DNA of 64,000 nucleotides from Patescibacteria group bacterium (GTDB lineage: Bacteria > Patescibacteriota > Microgenomatia > UBA12405). The DNA is taken from NCBI GenBank assembly GCA_050943115.1, contig JBMNON010000001.1:50023-114022 (forward strand). The letters run 5' to 3'. The notes under the pieces were generated by a model. The model saw only the letters and a program-made list of their open reading frames with translations. It had not been told where the DNA came from and searched no databases. Within the stretch, counting starts at the first letter, position 1, and every line of letters starts with the position of its first letter. The translations under genes were made by a program, and so were the position numbers. This document shows positions 2,798 through 26,144 of this stretch, piece by piece.

Positions 2798-3481
2798 CTA
2801 TGTTTCGTGCCGCCGCCCGGAACCATAGCCATACAAGTACCCGAAGAATGCTCCCAAGGCCATTGCTAGGAGAATAATAATTGCCATTTGGCAATCATTA
2901 TCCACACCACCCCCTGTAGGAATCAGTGGGATTGGTGTTGCCGTTAAAGTCGGCTGTTCCGGCGTCTCTGTCGGAGTGACTGGCGTAGCTGTCGGTGTCA
3001 CTGGAGTCGAAGTCGGCGTCATCGGCGTTGACGTTGGTGTCGGCTCCTCCGGCGTGCTCGTAGGAACTGGCGTTTCCGTCGGCTTCACGGGCGTTTCGGT
3101 AGGCACCGGAGTCTCAGTTGGCACCTCTGGTGTACTGGTCGGAGTCATTGTAGGGATCGGGCACTTGCATGTCCACGAAACGACAATGTGCGATATGTCT
3201 TGGCAGGCACTCGAATTGTCTTTCTCCCACACTCTCCAACCGGAATCATCCCAGGAAAACCCGAAACACTCGTTCGGACTACCTTGGTATTGTCCGGCCT
3301 TGATCTGAACGAAAGCTGACTCCACCCCATGTTCACAGTCAAACGATCCAGATTTCTCCGAATCGCTATCATTCCACTCGATCTTAACGGATCCGCCTCC
3401 ACAGGTTTCTGCTACAACCCACAAAGGGGTTGAAGCCAGAACCGTAACCAAAACGATCAACAAAAAGACTCTCCACTTCAT
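2798..3481 (-). CDS. GC-rich cassette: secreted Cys-domain protein with TP-repeat linker and C-terminal sortase-like sorting signal
   Basis: Start chosen at MKWRVFLL (ATG at 3481-3479) preceded by AAGGGAGGTCTGAA SD. Signal peptide, long TPTSTPEVPTETPVPTETPV... repeats, then LIPTGGG + hydrophobic helix + RRHET tail. Local GC is clearly above the window mean. Confidence 0.55.
   Translation of the reverse strand: MKWRVFLLIVLVTVLASTPLWVVAETCGGGSVKIEWNDSDSEKSGSFDCEHGVESAFVQIKAGQYQGSPNECFGFSWDDSGWRVWEKDNSSACQDISHIVVSWTCKCPIPTMTPTSTPEVPTETPVPTETPVKPTETPVPTSTPEEPTPTSTPMTPTSTPVTPTATPVTPTETPEQPTLTATPIPLIPTGGGVDNDCQMAIIILLAMALGAFFGYLYGYGSGRRHET
2925..3165. repeat. tandem low-complexity repeats encoding Thr-Pro-(Glu/Val/Ser) linker
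   Basis: Reiterated ggcgt/ggtgt/cggag units on the + strand; the opposite strand encodes PT(E/S/V)TP repeats. Confidence 0.5.
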
Positions 3482-3887
3482 TTCAGACCTCCCTTTCCTG
3501 TTCGTGTGAAGTATATTATCGGCCATCATTCTCACCACTATGGCAAGAATGTTTAACAAGGTTAGTTGCCAAGGGGCGGCAACTCTACAACAGATGGGGG
3601 TTAAAAGGGGTAATATATCCAAAAGGGACACTACCGGCAAATTTTACCGGCACTATCCCTCCTGGATATTTGATCTCTCGGATTGTTAAAGAACTATAAT
3701 CCACCCTCATTGATTAGCAATTAACCAAAAGTGGGAACTATAATACGACATTATAGGTTTTAATAGCTTAAAAGTCAATCACTTGATAGCCACTTTCCAC
3801 CATTCCTTGAAGCAAAATTCCAAAAATGTTATTCTTAAGAATAGATATCCTTGTTTGTGCCTTGATAATTACAAATTTTGATTTTAC

Positions 3888-7300: not shown

Positions 7301-8443
7301 TTATATCTTCTTCAATATATTCAATAGCTTGCCGTTAATCTTGTCCGGAGTAAAAACCTGCTTCATCCTATCCCTTACCTTGCCGCTTACTTCCTGGCGA
7401 TTAATTTCTCCGACCTTTTTATATACTTGAGCTGTCGACCTAAAATCTACCACCCAATCTTTTAAACCTAATTTTTTGAAAGTTTCTGCCACCCCCATAT
7501 TGGAGCTAACCAGAGCCGGAGTTCCGCAGGCAACGGCCTCCTGAGCTACATTTCCGTAAGTCTCAAAAAATGAAGGGCTCAAAACTACCCCCATATTACC
7601 ATAGAATTTAGCCAACCTCTGGTTATTCATCGGTTTAATTAACTTAACAAAATTATACAAATCACCCACATCATTTTTAGCCTTCTTGGTATCAGTTACC
7701 ACGTTAATTCTAAACAAATCACCGCGTTTATGGTTATATCTAACCAACTTCTTCACAAAATTTGGATTTTTTATATTTGACCAACGGCTAACTAAACCGA
7801 CGTTTTTGGCAGAACCCCCCTTCTTAATATCAAAGAAATGTTCCGGCACCGGATTGGGCAGCACTGCCCCCTGGCAAATCTTATGGCCAAAAACTTCGTT
7901 TTCAACAGTCTCCTTAGCTAGTTCCGACGGAAAAACATAGAACAATCTATCGTTGTCAAATGTCTTCTCCATTTCATTTACCAGTTTTCTTGGTTTTTCG
8001 TCCATATGCTCTGTTTCTTTAGTCAATATTCCGTGATAATGCAAAACCATTGACTGATTATTCTTATTCGACCCGGCCATAAATAAACACCATGGTACAA
8101 AGTATGTACCATTTACCAAAATTACGTCCGGCTTTTCCTTTTTAATTACTTCTTTATAGGTATCTATCAACTCTTGATAAGAGTTTTTTATGTCTTCAAC
8201 ACTTTCGGAATCCTTCAGCACATCCGCAAACACCTTGCATTTTTTATTAACTTTAAGCAGCTCAAAATTCTTCTTATCTTCTTTGTAAATTCCACTTTCA
8301 CAAGCATTCGGCTCTCCGCAAATTTCCACCCCGACAATTTTAACCTTCTTCTTTGAATCACTTTCTACATAATTAACAAAATTGGAAAAAGTCTGTCCGA
8401 TTCCTCCTAGTGGATTAGTTTGAACATTGGTTAATATTTTCAT
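7301..8443 (-). CDS. glycosyltransferase, GT4 (GT-B fold)
   Basis: FFETYGNVAQEAVACGTPALVSSNMGVAE matches the GT4 E..G....EA.A.G.PV motif. Confidence 0.65.
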   Translation of the reverse strand: MKILTNVQTNPLGGIGQTFSNFVNYVESDSKKKVKIVGVEICGEPNACESGIYKEDKKNFELLKVNKKCKVFADVLKDSESVEDIKNSYQELIDTYKEVIKKEKPDVILVNGTYFVPWCLFMAGSNKNNQSMVLHYHGILTKETEHMDEKPRKLVNEMEKTFDNDRLFYVFPSELAKETVENEVFGHKICQGAVLPNPVPEHFFDIKKGGSAKNVGLVSRWSNIKNPNFVKKLVRYNHKRGDLFRINVVTDTKKAKNDVGDLYNFVKLIKPMNNQRLAKFYGNMGVVLSPSFFETYGNVAQEAVACGTPALVSSNMGVAETFKKLGLKDWVVDFRSTAQVYKKVGEINRQEVSGKVRDRMKQVFTPDKINGKLLNILKKI

Positions 8444-16557: not shown

Positions 16558-17442
16558 ATGCCAATCACCAAAGCTATCATCGCCGCCGCCGGCCGCGGTA
16601 CTCGCTTTTTACCTGTTGTTAAAGCCTACCCCAAAGAACTTATCCCTCTTCTTTCCAAACCGAATATCCAACTATTAATCGAAGAAGCCATCGGCGCCGG
16701 AATTACTGACATTATGATCGTCCAACGTCAGGGTGAAACTGCCATAGAACGCTATTTCACTCCCGACGTGAAGCTCGAAAAATACCTCTCGGAAACCAAC
16801 AAAACCCCTTATTTGGATAGTCTTAAACGAATCTGGTCCCAAGCAAAAATCCACTTCACTTTTCAATCCTCCGACCTACCTTATGGCAATGCCTCACCCC
16901 TTCTGGCTTCCCGCGAATTTATCGGCCAGGAATCCTTTGTCTACATGTTTGGCGATGATTTAACCGTTGAACCCACACCCGGCCAATATCTAAAAGAACT
17001 TATCAACACCTACGATAAATATCAGCCTGCTGTTTTGCTCGGTGGCCAATACGTTCCTTGGGAAGAAATCAACCGTTACGGCTCTATGAAATTTATAGAA
17101 GACAAAAAATACCCTCAGCGTGTTACTGCCGTTTTGGAGAAAATGGAACCCAACCAAGCTCCCAGCAATTTTGCCCAGGGCGGCCGCTTCGTGGTTTCCG
17201 GCGCCAAAATATTCCCCGTTTTGGACAAACAAAGGTTGTCCCGGGATAACGAACTTTGGTTTGCCGATGCCAACAATACTTTAGCCCAAACTGATGTGGT
17301 TATGGCACAGGAAATCAAAGATGGTACCTGGTTAACTACCGGAGACCCCCTGCGTTGGCTGAAAGCCAATATCGCTCTGGCCCTACAGGATCCCGATATC
17401 GGCCCCAGCATCAAAGATTACCTGAAAAGCCTCCATATCTAA
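16558..17442 (+). CDS. galU: UTP--glucose-1-phosphate uridylyltransferase
   Basis: KAIIAAAGRGTRFLPVVKAYPKELIPLLSKPNIQLLIEEAIGAGITDI matches the GalU N-terminal signature. Confidence 0.8.
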   Translation: MPITKAIIAAAGRGTRFLPVVKAYPKELIPLLSKPNIQLLIEEAIGAGITDIMIVQRQGETAIERYFTPDVKLEKYLSETNKTPYLDSLKRIWSQAKIHFTFQSSDLPYGNASPLLASREFIGQESFVYMFGDDLTVEPTPGQYLKELINTYDKYQPAVLLGGQYVPWEEINRYGSMKFIEDKKYPQRVTAVLEKMEPNQAPSNFAQGGRFVVSGAKIFPVLDKQRLSRDNELWFADANNTLAQTDVVMAQEIKDGTWLTTGDPLRWLKANIALALQDPDIGPSIKDYLKSLHI

Positions 17443-17660
17443 CCATTATTATTACCGGCTTCTTAATATTCCTCAAAGTTTATTCTCTATTGACTTCCTA
17501 TTAACTGTACTTACACACTTCATACACATCCATAATAACCTATAGTTAGGTTGTTATTTATCGTGTCTTGTATGGTCCATGATAACTTTTTCTCATCCTT
17601 AAGGTAATAAATTACACTTAATTATTGATATTTGTCTAATAGTAACTTATAATATTTCTT

Positions 17661-17921
17661 ATGGATTTTAGGAAATATTCTTCTCTAATCCTAATATTGC
17701 TTGTCCTCTCGGCCATCAGCTTTTATGCTTTTGTCCAGATAGACCGCTATTTATCCCTCAAAGAGCAAAGCCTAAAAAATGACGCTGTCATTAACTGTCT
17801 TCGTTTTAGCGGTCAAAACAATCTTCTTAACAAGGAAGGCCAGATTACCGTTTCTTACCCTCTAAAAGAAATTTACACCTACTGTCTTAATGATCAGGGT
17901 TATTCTACTAACTGGAAATAA
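17661..17921 (+). CDS. hypothetical small membrane protein
   Basis: ORF with one TM helix. Confidence 0.3.
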   Translation: MDFRKYSSLILILLVLSAISFYAFVQIDRYLSLKEQSLKNDAVINCLRFSGQNNLLNKEGQITVSYPLKEIYTYCLNDQGYSTNWK

Positions 17922-17937
17922 GATTAGTATCCTATAA

Positions 17938-17966
17938 CTTGACATTATTACACATTTATTATATAA
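17938..17966 (+). promoter_or_regulatory. consensus sigma70-like promoter TTGACA-N17-TATAAT driving GC-rich cassette A
   Basis: TTGACA at 17938-17943, a 17-nt spacer, TATAAT at 17961-17966. Preceded by the recurrent TATCCTATAAC motif. Confidence 0.5.
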
Positions 17967-18290
17967 TATAGGTCATACAATCAAACAATTGATTGTTAGT
18001 ACTTTTTAAAAATAAAAGTAGTTGTCATAGGAGAGACGGGAGGTTGGGTGGCTCCTCTTAAACCCCCTGCTCCCCTTCTCCTTTGGCAATTCACTTGCCA
18101 AAAGTATGGACAAGACCTTTCCGGCACAGCGCTGGAAATCAGCTTTCCATACGGTTCTTTAACAACCTAGTTTCTTTACCCGCAAAACAACACCATATTG
18201 GGCATCTTCAAGGTGCCCGGCATGGTGTTGTTTTTAACATGTGGTTATCGGGCTCGTATCAAACAAACAGTTCGAAAAGGAGAAGCTGTC

Positions 18291-18848
18291 ATGAGAACGT
18301 TCTACTTTCTGCTTGCCGTCGCCTTGGTGTTTATGCCTGTTGGCTGTGGCGCCATCTATGCTGCGGTCGGGGGACGCAGTCTGATCGTCGGTCAACCGGA
18401 GGGATACATCCCACCGGCCGCTGACAGTCCCGCTGCTGATCCGACCCCAGTGCCGCCCACTGCCACCGCCCCCGTGACTCAGACTCTCCAGCGAAACGCG
18501 GAAGGCTACGTCGGTCCCACGACCGCCGAAGTCTCCGCCCTGGTTGGGGTGGATCTGGTTCGAGTGGGGACGGAGCCTTCCGCCTGGACATGGCGAGGGA
18601 AGCCTTCAACGGCAACCATCACCTGTCCGGAGGGCTTCTCATGCACGCTCGACGCCGTCGACGACATCACCGTCGTCGTCGGTGGAGTCAACCAGGAGGT
18701 TCTTGTTTACGCAGGGACCTTCAGATGGCTCGAGGCATACCCGCAAGGGATATGCGGCATCTTCGACTCGGAGCAGGAGTTTGCACTGAAAGAGGGCTAC
18801 CAAGTCCGCTATCAGGAAGCTTCTGGCTACGAGGCAGTCTGCCCATAA
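18291..18848 (+). CDS. GC-rich cassette A: secreted protein with Pro/Ala/Thr-rich linker (PPAADSPAADPTPVPPTATAPVTQT) and C-terminal globular domain
   Basis: ATG at 18291 sits 8 nt after AAAGGAGAAG. The signal peptide is MRTFYFLLAVALVFMPVGCG. The region is about 60% GC against about 40% background. Confidence 0.55.
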   Translation: MRTFYFLLAVALVFMPVGCGAIYAAVGGRSLIVGQPEGYIPPAADSPAADPTPVPPTATAPVTQTLQRNAEGYVGPTTAEVSALVGVDLVRVGTEPSAWTWRGKPSTATITCPEGFSCTLDAVDDITVVVGGVNQEVLVYAGTFRWLEAYPQGICGIFDSEQEFALKEGYQVRYQEASGYEAVCP

Positions 18849-18876
18849 CCACACCCACCCCAACAACACCCCCCGT

Positions 18877-18913
18877 GGGAGAGACCTGACATCGTCGTCA
18901 GATAATCTCTCCC
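18877..18913 (+). terminator. nested stem-loop downstream of cassette A gene (terminator-like, weak U tract)
   Basis: GGGAGAGA...TCTCTCCC with inner CTGAC/GTCAG; followed by tcggggtggggtggaatttt. Confidence 0.4.
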
Positions 18914-18946
18914 TCGGGGTGGGGTGGAATTTTGGGTAAGAAACTA

Positions 18947-19005
18947 GGTATGCGTCCTCTGATGAGTATCAGAGCTGATGAGTCCAAAAGGACGAAACGC
19001 AGACC
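18947..19005 (+). ncRNA. hammerhead ribozyme, type III topology
   Basis: GGUAUGCGUC^CUCUGA-UGAGUA-UCAGAG-CUGAUGA-GUCC-AAAA-GGAC-GAAA-CGCAGACC. It carries the GUC cleavage triplet (cut after C18956), closed stem I hairpin, CUGAUGA, 4-bp stem II with AAAA loop, GAAA, and open stem III (GCGU/ACGC plus extension). Confidence 0.75.
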
Positions 19006-19044
19006 ATTAAAACTTAAGCCCGATTATTCGGGCTTTCTTTGTAA

Positions 19045-19833
19045 ATGACTACAATTGACCTAATCATCCCCGTCTTCAACGAAGAAAAGCGTCTTCAAAA
19101 AACCTTTGAGGCTCTAAATTCTTTTGCCCCTCAAAAAGGCTTGAAAGTCCAAAAAGTCATTTTTATTAATGACGGTTCTGCCGACTCTACTCTAAAACTT
19201 ATCAAAACCACCAAAATTAAATTCAAAAAACATGTTATTTCCTATTCTCAAAACCAAGGTAAAGGTTATGCTGTTAAACAGGGCTTACTTGCTGCCCGAT
19301 CTGACTACGCCCTCTTTTTTGATGCCGATATGTCTACTCCTCTTACTGAAATTAAGAAATTCCTGCCTTATACCAAAAAAGGATGCCCAATCATAATTGG
19401 TACCCGCAAAAACGGCCACTCCACTGTTATTGTTCATCAACCCTTTGTCAGGGAACATTTGGGCCGTATTTTCACTAGACTCTCCCAAATAATCCTGGGC
19501 ACTTCAGTAACCGATTTTACTTGTGGCTTTAAAGCTTTTTCCAAAGAAGCCTACTCCGTAATCGCCCCCCTAATGCAAATAAACCGTTGGGGTTACGACA
19601 GCGAAATCATTTTTATTGCCCAAAAACACCAGCTTCCTATTCAGGAAAAATCAGTTACCTGGTCTGACGAGCCCAACACCAAGGTCAAATTACTAAAAGA
19701 CGGTTTCCGTTCTCTTAACGAACTTTTTCAAATTCGTTTAAACTATTTGAAAGGTAACTATGACCAAACAAACACAAAAAAAACTTGTCACTTCCCCTAT
19801 AACCGCACTCTTCCTACTGAAACTACATCTTAA
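19045..19833 (+). CDS. GT2 polyprenyl-phosphate sugar synthase-like glycosyltransferase (DPM1/GtrB/Ppm1-like)
   Basis: DLIIPVFNEEKRL, VIFINDGSADST, QGKGYAVKQG, FFDADMSTP (DxD) are the GT2 motifs in the expected order. Confidence 0.7.
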   Translation: MTTIDLIIPVFNEEKRLQKTFEALNSFAPQKGLKVQKVIFINDGSADSTLKLIKTTKIKFKKHVISYSQNQGKGYAVKQGLLAARSDYALFFDADMSTPLTEIKKFLPYTKKGCPIIIGTRKNGHSTVIVHQPFVREHLGRIFTRLSQIILGTSVTDFTCGFKAFSKEAYSVIAPLMQINRWGYDSEIIFIAQKHQLPIQEKSVTWSDEPNTKVKLLKDGFRSLNELFQIRLNYLKGNYDQTNTKKTCHFPYNRTLPTETTS

Positions 19834-21161: not shown

Positions 21162-21269
21162 TTGTAAACTATACGCATTTATTATATAATTCCCCTGTTC
21201 ATAAGAATCTTTAAAAATATTGCATTTTTATAGGATTTTTATGATGCTCTTTGACAGACTGCTAGGATT

Positions 21270-21320
21270 TGTGACGCAATTATTTAAGCCTATATAATAG
21301 GCTTGGCTATTTGCGTCACA
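21270..21320 (+). promoter_or_regulatory. promoter TGTGAC-N17-TATAAT embedded in nested perfect palindromes (candidate operator) for cassette B
   Basis: Outer inverted repeat TGTGACGCAA (21270-79) / TTGCGTCACA (21311-20). The inner palindrome AAGCCTAT-ATA-ATAGGCTT (21286-21304) is centred on the TATAAT -10 box. Confidence 0.45.
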
Positions 21321-21362
21321 AAAGGTGATGCATATTGTGCATAGAACAAAGGAGAAACTCAG

Positions 21363-22013
21363 ATGAAGTGGCAAGTTCTTTTAGGTCTTTTCGTTCTGGT
21401 CGTGATGGTCAGCTTCCCGGCTCTTGCCGAAGAGACAAAGACCATCTCCGTCTCAGGAAACACTGCCTGTTTAGCCTTCGTCGCCAACTACGACGGAGCA
21501 GCAACAGTCCATGTGTTGTGGGGCATCCCGGGCACTCCTCGTGAAGATCTTGTCTTCACCGAGCGGACTGTCCTGGTTGTCCCCCCGGAAGGCGCAAATA
21601 CCTTCTGGTTTGGAGGAAGCGAGGAGTTTGTGGTGGCAACTGATCTAACTCCGCTGGGAGAAGATTGGTATGCTATACCTCAAGTCCTGCAACCGACACC
21701 AGAACCGACTCCGCAACCGACTCCTGCACCGACATTCGATGTTTTCCTCCCCCTTGTCTTCTCGCCCCCCAGCACCATTACCATCGAACGTGATGGTAAC
21801 AATCTGGTCTTACGGGCCTCTAGGCAACCAAGTACCGACCTCTATCTCCTCTGGGGAGTGGAAAACACACCTCGACATAACCTGGTTTTCATCAATCAGG
21901 TCGCTACCACACCGATTCCCCAAGGGGCACAAACCTTCTGGTTTGCCGCACCCAACTTCAGGGTAAATACCAACTTTCAGGACCTCGGTTCTGATTGGTA
22001 CCAAATCCCCTGA
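21363..22013 (+). CDS. GC-rich cassette B: secreted two-domain protein (internal duplication) joined by PTPEPTPQPTPAPT linker
   Basis: AAAGGAGAAACTCAG-ATG RBS; signal peptide MKWQVLLGLFVLVVMVSFPALA. Two homologous ~60-aa modules (VLWGIPGTPREDLVF...FWFGGSEEF...DWYAIP and LLWGVENTPRHNLVF...FWFAAPNF...DWYQIP). Confidence 0.6.
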   Translation: MKWQVLLGLFVLVVMVSFPALAEETKTISVSGNTACLAFVANYDGAATVHVLWGIPGTPREDLVFTERTVLVVPPEGANTFWFGGSEEFVVATDLTPLGEDWYAIPQVLQPTPEPTPQPTPAPTFDVFLPLVFSPPSTITIERDGNNLVLRASRQPSTDLYLLWGVENTPRHNLVFINQVATTPIPQGAQTFWFAAPNFRVNTNFQDLGSDWYQIP

Positions 22014-22025
22014 TTTCCATGCCAA

Positions 22026-22058
22026 GCAGGGCGGCTGCCTCCAGGCTCGCCGCCCTGC
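22026..22058 (+). terminator. GC-rich 10-bp perfect stem-loop after cassette B gene
   Basis: GCAGGGCGGC-tgcctccaggctc-GCCGCCCTGC; no clean U tract. Confidence 0.45.
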
Positions 22059-22133
22059 CTCGGCCTCTCCTCCCCCGCACCACCCACTAGCAGTCTGTTT
22101 ATAATAAAGTAAGGAATTTATTTATCCTGCCTC

Positions 22134-24878: not shown

Positions 24879-25114
24879 TCCTACATACTAACAACCGTTA
24901 GTAGATCTTTAACAGTATTGGTATTCTTCACCAAATATTGCTTTTGGAGTATGAGTCCAATACAGTTCTTTTACATGACAGGTCAGGGTTTGGGAATTGG
25001 TCTTATAGTTGGGCCCTTAAGGCCGACAAGGTGTTTGTCGGTCCTAAGGGCTACAACTATCAACTGACCCTATCCCGGGCCCTAGGGTCACAAGTATCGC
25101 TCGAAAGGAGCAAC

Positions 25115-25777
25115 ATGGTCATCAGCTGGAGTAACATCATTCTGTTTCTTGCGGGGATCGGAATCATCTTCATCGCTTTTCTTGCTTTGGGCGGAGCCAT
25201 CTACTGGTGGTTCTTTAAGAAGCCCACGGAAGAGCAACCCGAAGAGGTCGAGCCTGCCCCCCGACGCCGAGAGGAACACGACGAACCCGTCGTCGAACGT
25301 ACGACTGTACGTCGTGAGACTACGGTTCGCCCCGCGCGTCCACGAGAAGCCGTCATCGAAGAAGAGGTGGAAACTCGTCCCGTCGTCCGTCGTCGTCCGG
25401 CCACCCCCCCCGTTGTCCGCCGTCGTGCTCCAGCCCCCCCCAAGGAGGTAACCTCCTTCAACGAGGCTACCGACAAACTGGTGGATTATGTCGATCGCTA
25501 CGACACGAAAGAGATCCAGCTCCAACGGGACATTCGTCCTGCCTGGTCGGCTTTTCGAAGCTCCCTCGACGCGGCCGTTTCTGTCGGTGACAATCCGAAG
25601 ATCAACGTCACGAAAGTGGCCAAAATCCTCATTGACGCCGAGCAGGACGCCGCCAAGCGAAGCATGCCGGGCTACGCTCGAGAGTTCAGGTCCTACCTGA
25701 AGCAGCTCAACGTGGAGATCACCGAAGAGTCTTCGGACAAATCGGATGTACCACCTCCTCCCGCTCTCTCCGACTGA
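25115..25777 (+). CDS. GC-rich cassette C: N-terminally anchored protein with Arg/Pro/Glu-rich linker and C-terminal domain
   Basis: AAAGGAGCAAC-ATG RBS; TM helix IILFLAGIGIIFIAFLALGGAIYWWFF. Linker PRRREEHDEPVVERTTVRRETTVRPARP...RRRPATPPVVRRRAPAPP; about 60% GC. Confidence 0.5.
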   Translation: MVISWSNIILFLAGIGIIFIAFLALGGAIYWWFFKKPTEEQPEEVEPAPRRREEHDEPVVERTTVRRETTVRPARPREAVIEEEVETRPVVRRRPATPPVVRRRAPAPPKEVTSFNEATDKLVDYVDRYDTKEIQLQRDIRPAWSAFRSSLDAAVSVGDNPKINVTKVAKILIDAEQDAAKRSMPGYAREFRSYLKQLNVEITEESSDKSDVPPPPALSD

Positions 25778-25917
25778 CCCTCAACCTGTCATAACCGCGC
25801 ACTGCGCAAAATTTGGACCCTTTGGGGACCATCTTTTGTAATGTGCGCGGCTTGACCTTTGTCCAAAAATTATTTTTTAGCCAGAGGCCAAGCCCTAAAT
25901 TTTATAATTCAACAAAA

Positions 25918-25942
25918 AGCAGTCTTGAAGGGACTGCTTTTT
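25918..25942 (+). terminator. rho-independent terminator after cassette C
   Basis: GCAGTC-ttgaaggg-GACTGC followed by TTTTTT. Confidence 0.7.
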
Positions 25943-26144
25943 TGTTAGTCTCAAAATAGTCCTATAATAATAGTTTATTATTCCCTAGTTTCAGGCAATT
26001 ATTTGGCAATAACGCCATCCCTAATTTCTTGAAACTTTATTGTTCTTTGACAACCGACCGTAACTGATACAGCCAGAAAAGCTGATAAAAATCTTCTCGA
26101 TTTTTCTGGCTGTTTCAGACTTTTTCACAAGAAGGGAGTCACTC

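Follow-up and report, generated by a model that had tools for sequence, protein, structure and literature searches.

A leader/3'UTR helix beside a predicted hammerhead ribozyme at a putative surface-protein gene of a Patescibacteria bacterium

In Bacillus subtilis, the 5'UTR and 3'UTR of the hbs mRNA form a helix of ~14 bp by an AU-rich single-stranded site, which modulates RNase access and mRNA stability (Braun, Durand and Condon 2017, PMC5737220). In Staphylococcus aureus, translation of icaR is repressed by its own 3'UTR, which masks the Shine-Dalgarno sequence and generates a site for RNase III (Ruiz de los Mozos et al. 2013, PMC3868564). Hammerhead ribozymes are found flanking genes in the polycistronic RNAs of prophages (Perreault et al. 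2011, PMC3088659). The locus described here lies in a stretch of 64,000 nucleotides from a Patescibacteria group bacterium, analyzed as a whole and referred to as the window, and combines a 5'/3'-UTR interaction with a predicted hammerhead-processed operon. The homologs of its glycosyltransferases place the uncultured host among Shapirobacteria-like CPR bacteria.

The gene in question, cassette A, resembles hbs in that the structured 5'UTR of one strongly promoted mRNA is predicted to pair with its 3'UTR. However, the cassette A helix abuts a predicted self-cleaving ribozyme that would make the 3' end, reaches 18–23 bp in relatives, belongs to a CPR bacterium and comes with an extra conserved 5' domain. 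Unlike icaR, cassette A keeps its Shine-Dalgarno sequence free, the paired leader strand being located ~100 nt further upstream. The ribozyme shares its core, its three stems and its position between genes of one transcript with type III and prophage hammerheads; in contrast to the prophage examples, it is a single chromosomal copy at a conserved cell-envelope locus, and a strand of the distant leader extends its stem III. Synthetic insulators such as RiboJ place a hammerhead between transcript parts, whereby the downstream RNA receives a defined 5'-OH and a hairpin, whereas the hammerhead of cassette A is a natural one, placed 3' of a gene and linked to the leader/3'UTR helix. Finally, the long structured leader with its mutually exclusive helices and, in the window lineage, a hairpin followed by a U-run is reminiscent of riboswitch and attenuator platforms; however, neither the terminator nor the leader peptide is conserved, and the leader contains no known aptamer. 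The literature searched contained no relevant link of hammerheads with CPR or Patescibacteria.

The locus begins with an NTP-transferase gene, which is followed by cassette A and then by genes for GT2, GT1 and an 897-aa membrane protein; the features of the cassette A region are collected in Table 1. The consensus promoter named in a preliminary description of this DNA proved to be a perfect one, and its extended -35 region, CCTATAACTTGACA, is kept in relatives and repeated ahead of two further cassettes of the window, B and C. The cassette A protein starts with a lipoprotein-like signal sequence, which a Pro/Thr/Ala-rich linker joins to a C-terminal domain. It has no Pfam match, and a first protein search with it returned itself alone; a profile search then gave a family of 34 hypothetical proteins, every one of them from Patescibacteria. 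In a six-sequence alignment, the window protein is 16 to 44% identical to the others, the 44% being that of the L042 protein, and the mean pairwise identity of the cassette ORFs is 0.54. The AlphaFold model has a pLDDT of 80.6, rising above 90 for residues 80–170 (the C-terminal domain), and its comparison with the PDB gave no match (best E = 0.38). The product is best explained as a putative fast-evolving, membrane-anchored surface protein encoded by a strongly promoted gene.

Table 1. Coordinates of the features of the cassette A region (positions are those of the window).
Feature	Positions	Strand	Remarks
Promoter TTGACA-17-TATAAT	17939-17967	+	12/12 sigma-70 consensus matches
Transcription start (estimated)	~17974-17975	+	within conserved TATAATATAGG context
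Cassette A leader (5' untranslated)	roughly 17975-18290	+	~316 nt
P0, two small 5' hairpins	17977-17996, 18000-18020	+	minimum-energy fold; related hairpins in homologs
P1 long hairpin	18020-18091	+	outer stem 18020-18034/18077-18091; inner stem 18039-18046/18067-18074
P1 apical loop	18047-18066	+	contains GTGGCTCCTC (18048-18057)
P2alt, TTGGCAA-ttcac-TTGCCAA	18083-18101	+	shares strand 18083-18089 with outer P1
P3 variable hairpin	18104-18152	+	RNAalifold helix, columns 105-136, with compensatory changes
uORF	18106-18162	+	18 codons
Single-stranded motif TCTTTAACAA (TCTTTAAMAA)	18156-18165	+	invariant in 12/12 leaders
Long-range strand, leader	18165-18181	+	ACCTAGTTTCTT, bulged T, ACCC; pyrimidine-rich
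P4 terminator-like hairpin	18184-18235	+	25-nt arms 18184-18208 and 18210-18234, 84% complementary
Shine-Dalgarno AAGGAG	18277-18282	+	ATG at 18291
Cassette A ORF	18291-18848	+	185 aa; G+C 0.62
GC-rich 3' hairpin	18855-18927	+	directly past stop codon; minimum-energy fold of full transcript; equivalent in every homolog
Long-range strand, 3'UTR	18934-18949	+	GGGT AAGAAACTAGGT; purine-rich; ends 1 nt before hammerhead stem III
Type III hammerhead	18951-19001	+	between cassette A gene and downstream glycosyltransferase genes
Hammerhead stem III	18951-18955 with 18997-19001	+	
Hammerhead stem I	18957-18963 with 18968-18974	+	
Hammerhead core CUGAUGA	18975-18981	+	
Hammerhead stem II GUCC-AAAA-GGAC	18982-18993	+	
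Hammerhead GAA	18994-18996	+	
Terminator-like hairpin	19016-19035	+	between hammerhead and GT2 start (19045)

With its G+C of 0.62, the cassette A ORF is a GC island, and the G+C of the cassette ORF exceeds that of its own genome by 10–20 points in all 12 loci; the island is therefore persistent. The GC-rich "cassettes" of these small genomes are accordingly expression modules of long standing rather than recent imports. Upstream of the cassette, in the region 17625–17921, an 86-aa ORF (17661–17921) that is conserved in L003 and L027 begins 7 nt past a TTGATA-17-TATAAT promoter, and its mRNA is therefore probably leaderless.

Eleven homologous leaders were obtained from Shapirobacteria-like contigs, giving 12 distinct leaders together with the window, and all 11 occupy the same locus, between an NTP-transferase gene and glycosyltransferase genes. 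The locus order is shared by contigs with GT2 relatives of 62–69% identity, and further leaders were recovered from JGI metagenomes by a pattern built on the conserved leader parts. Four of the 14 loci from this metagenome scan (L029–L031 and L038) were discarded as chance matches, as were all 14 matches of the leader pattern to genome contigs, which fell in unrelated phyla. A covariance model of the leader detects a single copy at each locus and scores 122 bits in the window; the number of independent lineages among the homologs behind it is small (effective number 2.6). The distant relatives L025, L040, L042, L044 and L045 have neither the leader domain nor the hammerhead, as judged by covariance model and comparison.

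L004 and L032 have leader 5' domains that are 98% identical but differ in cassette ORF, hammerhead stems and downstream glycosyltransferase, a pattern indicating that strains have replaced the block of cassette and glycosyltransferase while retaining the leader. At the far end of the L032 contig (75–144, + strand), and unrelated to the leader, a match to the AdoCbl-II riboswitch comes near its threshold (33.4 bits vs a gathering score of 36.5).

The leader is strongly folded. A 327-nt segment (17974–18300) reaches -121.6 kcal/mol vs -79.4 +/- 5.4 for shuffled sequences (z = -7.8), and 0 of 100 shuffles folded as low. Mean identity across relatives is 0.71 in the 5' domain and 0.54 in the 3' half, and RNAalifold places 37 consensus pairs, 18 of which show compensatory changes, so that the covariation check suggested earlier for homologous leaders speaks for conservation. 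These data support the leader as a conserved, structured, cis-acting RNA. Rfam 15 at gathering thresholds has no match in 17968–18290, and a scan of 17400–19200 at E <= 10 gave over the leader only weak miRNA/snoRNA-type matches below threshold (E 0.35–4.3, 17–23 bits), in agreement with the earlier remark that no known aptamer class could be recognized; nor does any Rfam family match the homologous leaders in the 12 loci. A T-box, considered for a GGGUGG resemblance, was dropped in the absence of an Rfam T-box match. The leader thus adds an RNA domain that is absent from Rfam.

Much of what the preliminary description saw in the leader was recovered: the hairpins, the promoter, the uORF and the Shine-Dalgarno sequence stood, and one coordinate and the GC-richness of the leader did not. 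The AACAAT-tg-ATTGTT element is found at 17985–17998, in the first P0 hairpin, and GGAAA-tcagc-TTTCC at 18134–18148, in P3, which also includes most of the uORF. The TTGGCAA-ttcac-TTGCCAA hairpin exists, although 15 nt away from the position given for it (18098–18116), and is the element termed P2alt in Table 1. Rather than being GC-rich, the leader has a G+C of 0.44–0.445 in 200-nt windows vs about 0.43 for the whole window, the P1 part alone being GC-rich.

The outer stem of P1 is paired to 98.9% and includes 6 pairs with changes on both sides (alignment A2). For P1 as a whole, pairing reaches 95.5%, with 9 doubly changed pairs, vs 45–57% in controls with slid partner columns; for P2alt, it reaches 95.7%, with 3 such pairs. 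Because both use the strand 18083–18089, the outer part of P1 and P2alt are mutually exclusive, and two exclusive covarying helices are what a regulatory switch would look like. P1 is the ground state in all 12 leaders, and P2alt is 3–14 kcal/mol less stable.

The sequence GUGGCUCCUC (18048–18057) of the P1 loop is invariant in 11 of the 12 leaders, and no consistent partner site for it was found in the leader, the Shine-Dalgarno region, the ORF or the 3'UTR. Pairing of the loop with the hammerhead core (CUCGUCA/UGAUGAG) was dropped as a candidate, since the loops of the window and L033 are without that sequence. The single-stranded UCUUUAAMAA motif downstream of P3, for which no partner is predicted, recurs upstream of P1 in most homologs, so that the motif flanks the P1–P3 domain on both sides; in the window, a degenerate copy, CTTTTTAAAAAT (18002–18013), is held in the second P0 hairpin. 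The motif may be a site for an RNase or another protein.

Directly downstream of the motif, the pyrimidine-rich strand of the leader is complementary to a purine-rich strand of the 3'UTR, ~760 nt away. In the window, the helix comprises 12 bp, a bulge and 4 bp; in relatives, it comprises 18–23 bp in two segments. A perfect 12-nt complement to 18938–18949 was reached by 0 of 300 and 0 of 1000 shuffles. Across 10 loci, the perfect Watson–Crick runs measure 9–14 nt, and the observed run is reached by 0–6 of 1000 shuffles. The strands themselves differ among loci, as in L003 (AACCTAATTTCTTC/GAAGAAATTAGGTT), L033 (AATCTCTTTCTCT/AGAGAAAGAGATT) and L036 (TCTTTTTCTTCT/AGAAGAAAAAGA), and among the 5040 permutations possible for 7 distinct sequence classes, the cognate assignment of strands is the unique best. 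All nine full transcripts (1033–1510 nt) include the helix in their global minimum-energy fold. The helix contains 4 G-U pairs, its sole 1x1 mismatch is U-U, and there is no A-C mismatch, which favors RNA pairing over a DNA repeat. Comparison of the loci demonstrates that the predicted pairing of the 5'UTR with the 3'UTR exceeds chance complementarity and is kept by compensatory change.

One nucleotide past the 3'UTR strand begins a predicted self-cleaving ribozyme with the canonical features of a type III hammerhead. All core nucleotides and the A15.1-U16.1 pair are present, and cleavage is predicted at the GUC site, after C18956. The window hammerhead scores 42.5 bits against Rfam RF00008 (E = 1.9e-7), under the gathering threshold of 48.5, and was therefore missed by the default Rfam scan; sub-threshold matches occur at the same place in L021 (46.4 bits), L037 (39.4 bits), and L028 and L036 (22–24 bits), the E values spanning 1.9e-7 to 3.3. 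A hammerhead with a conserved core is found at this place in every locus whose contig extends that far, and in nine loci, seven of them parsed by script and two (the window and L003) by hand, stems I, II and III vary in sequence yet stay paired. Both overlooked in the earlier reading, the 3'UTR partner strand and the hammerhead explain the conservation of the pyrimidine-rich part of the leader.

The hammerheads of L004, L032 and L036 carry the U15.1-A16.1 core variant, a natural variant with weak activity in vitro (PMC3088659), and cleavage may therefore be slow or dispensable. In the same three loci (in L004 at about 7870–7935), the 5' strand of stem III is part of a purine tract that also pairs with the leader.

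Downstream of the hammerhead, the terminator-like hairpin of the window is missing from most homologs, and there the GT2 ATG is located 1–5 nt past the hammerhead, a spacing from stem III that was recorded in 5 loci. The GT2 gene of the window starts at 19045 without a Shine-Dalgarno sequence. In L040 (Collierbacteria), a locus without a hammerhead, a terminator and a separate promoter are found instead: its GT2 gene has its own TATAACTTGACA-type promoter (3399–3503), with the ATG ~8 nt past the -10 element, and this closeness fits the missing Shine-Dalgarno sequence before the window GT2. L044 (3122–3367) and L045 (3080–3298), whose cassette proteins are ~45% identical to that of the window, likewise lack a hammerhead and have another conserved 3'UTR structure, GCCTTAGGG...CCCTAAGGC, followed by a hairpin over the GT2 start codon.

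With moderate confidence, we propose that the mRNA is closed by the leader/3'UTR helix and that the hammerhead sets a protected 3' end, which would uncouple the surface-protein mRNA from the glycosyltransferase genes. The helix would close the mRNA into a large loop, and P4 on one side and the GC-rich 3' hairpin on the other would keep ribosomes off it. The hammerhead would cut after C18956, and the surface-protein mRNA would then end 7 nt past the stable duplex, which, near the new 3' end, would protect against 3' exonucleases. The glycosyltransferase RNA would be freed with a 5'-OH and a hammerhead cap, and one promoter could then yield very different amounts of the two products. A probable role of the P1/P2 domain and the UCUUUAACAA motif is to bind a protein or RNase, or to tune the process. 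By covariation, a hammerhead at a fixed place in a conserved chromosomal locus is tied to the mRNA's own 5' leader, which offers a testable natural role for a bacterial hammerhead. A transcript of ~1.1 kb, with a single predicted cut site and a single helix open to mutation and compensation, provides a cheap test system, addressing both ribozyme-defined mRNA ends and the 5'-3' closure of bacterial mRNAs.

Three features are not accounted for by the closure model, namely the invariant P1 loop, the UCUUUAAMAA motif and the covariation of P2alt, and they leave room for a leader that controls the ribozyme. The P1/P2 switch and the UCUUUAACAA motif could sense a protein or ligand and set the folding and cutting of the hammerhead via the helix at stem III, thereby regulating the ratio of surface protein to glycosyltransferase. 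The exclusive helices, both of which covary, are in line with such a conditional hammerhead, as is the place of the invariant motif, where the long-range helix meets stem III; moreover, the purine tract of the U15.1 variants offers several registers for the 3' strand of stem III, of which pairing with the leader frees the correct one only. However, P1 is favored by 3–14 kcal/mol in 12 of 12 leaders, the invariant loop lacks a partner, and the minimum-energy structure already contains a correctly folded hammerhead with no input, and we therefore regard this regulation as unlikely. Its boldest form, to which we assign an equally low probability, would make the leader the sensor half of a split ribozyme, i.e., a natural allosteric hammerhead acting over ~800 nt of mRNA, with cleavage and the ratio of the two products set by a protein or metabolite.

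The reading originally put forward takes the leader for a transcription-attenuation riboswitch or leader-peptide attenuator whose intrinsic terminator would be P4. P4, whose arms contain AAACAACACCAT (18185–18196) and ATGGTGTTGTTT (18222–18233), is very stable, and the stem described earlier proved to be a long hairpin (18184–18234) with five T (18231–18235), ~42 nt ahead of the Shine-Dalgarno sequence; four of these T pair with AAAA at 18184–18187, and a simple terminator scan does not call P4. The combination of stable hairpin and U-tract holds in the window lineage. All 11 homologs have a long hairpin (18–37 bp) directly past the long-range strand, unrelated in sequence, and a layout as that of P4 is found in cassettes B and C; however, a U-tract of at least 5 follows the equivalent hairpin in 0 of 11 homologs, the best cases being UUUAU(A/U)AA. 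The conserved alternative helices P1 and P2alt (18020–18101) are located ~90 nt upstream of P4 and do not overlap it, in contrast to what is expected of an attenuator, and no Rfam riboswitch is matched at E <= 10. The 18-codon uORF exists as reported, yet an in-frame start for it is missing in 8 of the 11 homologous leaders; L004 and L032 have a 3-codon ATG ORF, and L003 has a TTG start only. The uORF is not conserved, which makes a leader-peptide attenuator unlikely, and on its absence from those eight leaders the leader peptide was rejected. Of the original proposal, a structured cis-acting RNA with conserved, exclusive, covarying helices thus survives, whereas an aptamer family, a conserved terminator and a conserved uORF do not, and attenuation as a whole appears very unlikely. 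P4 is probably best read as a structural module of the leader, with a U-tail that in the window lineage derives from an A/U-rich stem base; some termination at P4 in that lineage is compatible with its five-U tail.

It is equally doubtful, in our estimate, that P4 and the other long hairpins are processing signals, i.e., sites for RNase III or another RNase, or that P4 in the window lineage ends a small RNA of ~260 nt from the strong promoter. Near-perfect hairpins at a conserved position without conserved sequence would suit such a role, as would the U-tail of the window P4 and the UCUUUAAMAA copies on both sides of the P1–P3 domain in most homologs; however, cutting P4 would part the long-range strand from the ORF that it seems to protect, and the U-tail is confined to the window lineage. 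The least probable reading takes the two strands for inverted repeats that bound a DNA cassette able to invert (phase variation) or to move (a transposon), as their placement around a variable surface-protein gene and the replacement of the cassette/glycosyltransferase block behind a 98% identical leader (L004 vs L032) might suggest, and an inverton or transposon was rejected as the main reading since the repeats are wholly different among cassettes A, B and C of one genome, the G-U pairs and the lone U-U mismatch noted above favor RNA, no recombinase or transposase gene lies in the scanned flanks (window ~11.4–29.5 kb), all 10 loci have one orientation, and the 3' strand always abuts hammerhead stem III.

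Cassette C (21197–22133) has a leader/3'UTR complement of its own, in which 21254–21265 matches 22087–22098 over 12 bp, and its layout consists of motif, strand, long hairpin, Shine-Dalgarno sequence, ORF, GC-rich 3' hairpin and partner strand. Of 60 window genes, those of cassettes A and C stand out most in leader/3'UTR complementarity, and the 9+5 bp complement of cassette B (24885–25965) is by itself not above chance (41 of 300 shuffles). Both B and C are GC-rich, with related promoters and long, hairpin-rich leaders, and encode membrane or secreted proteins without a Pfam match. Neither has a hammerhead, and the helix therefore does not need one; both cassettes are absent from the relatives examined. 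The UCUUUAAMAA motif is also present near the 5' ends of the transcripts of cassette C (21208) and cassette B (24906). Throughout the window, GC skew on the + strand is strongly negative, most 1-kb windows giving about -0.2 to -0.5, irrespective of gene strand.
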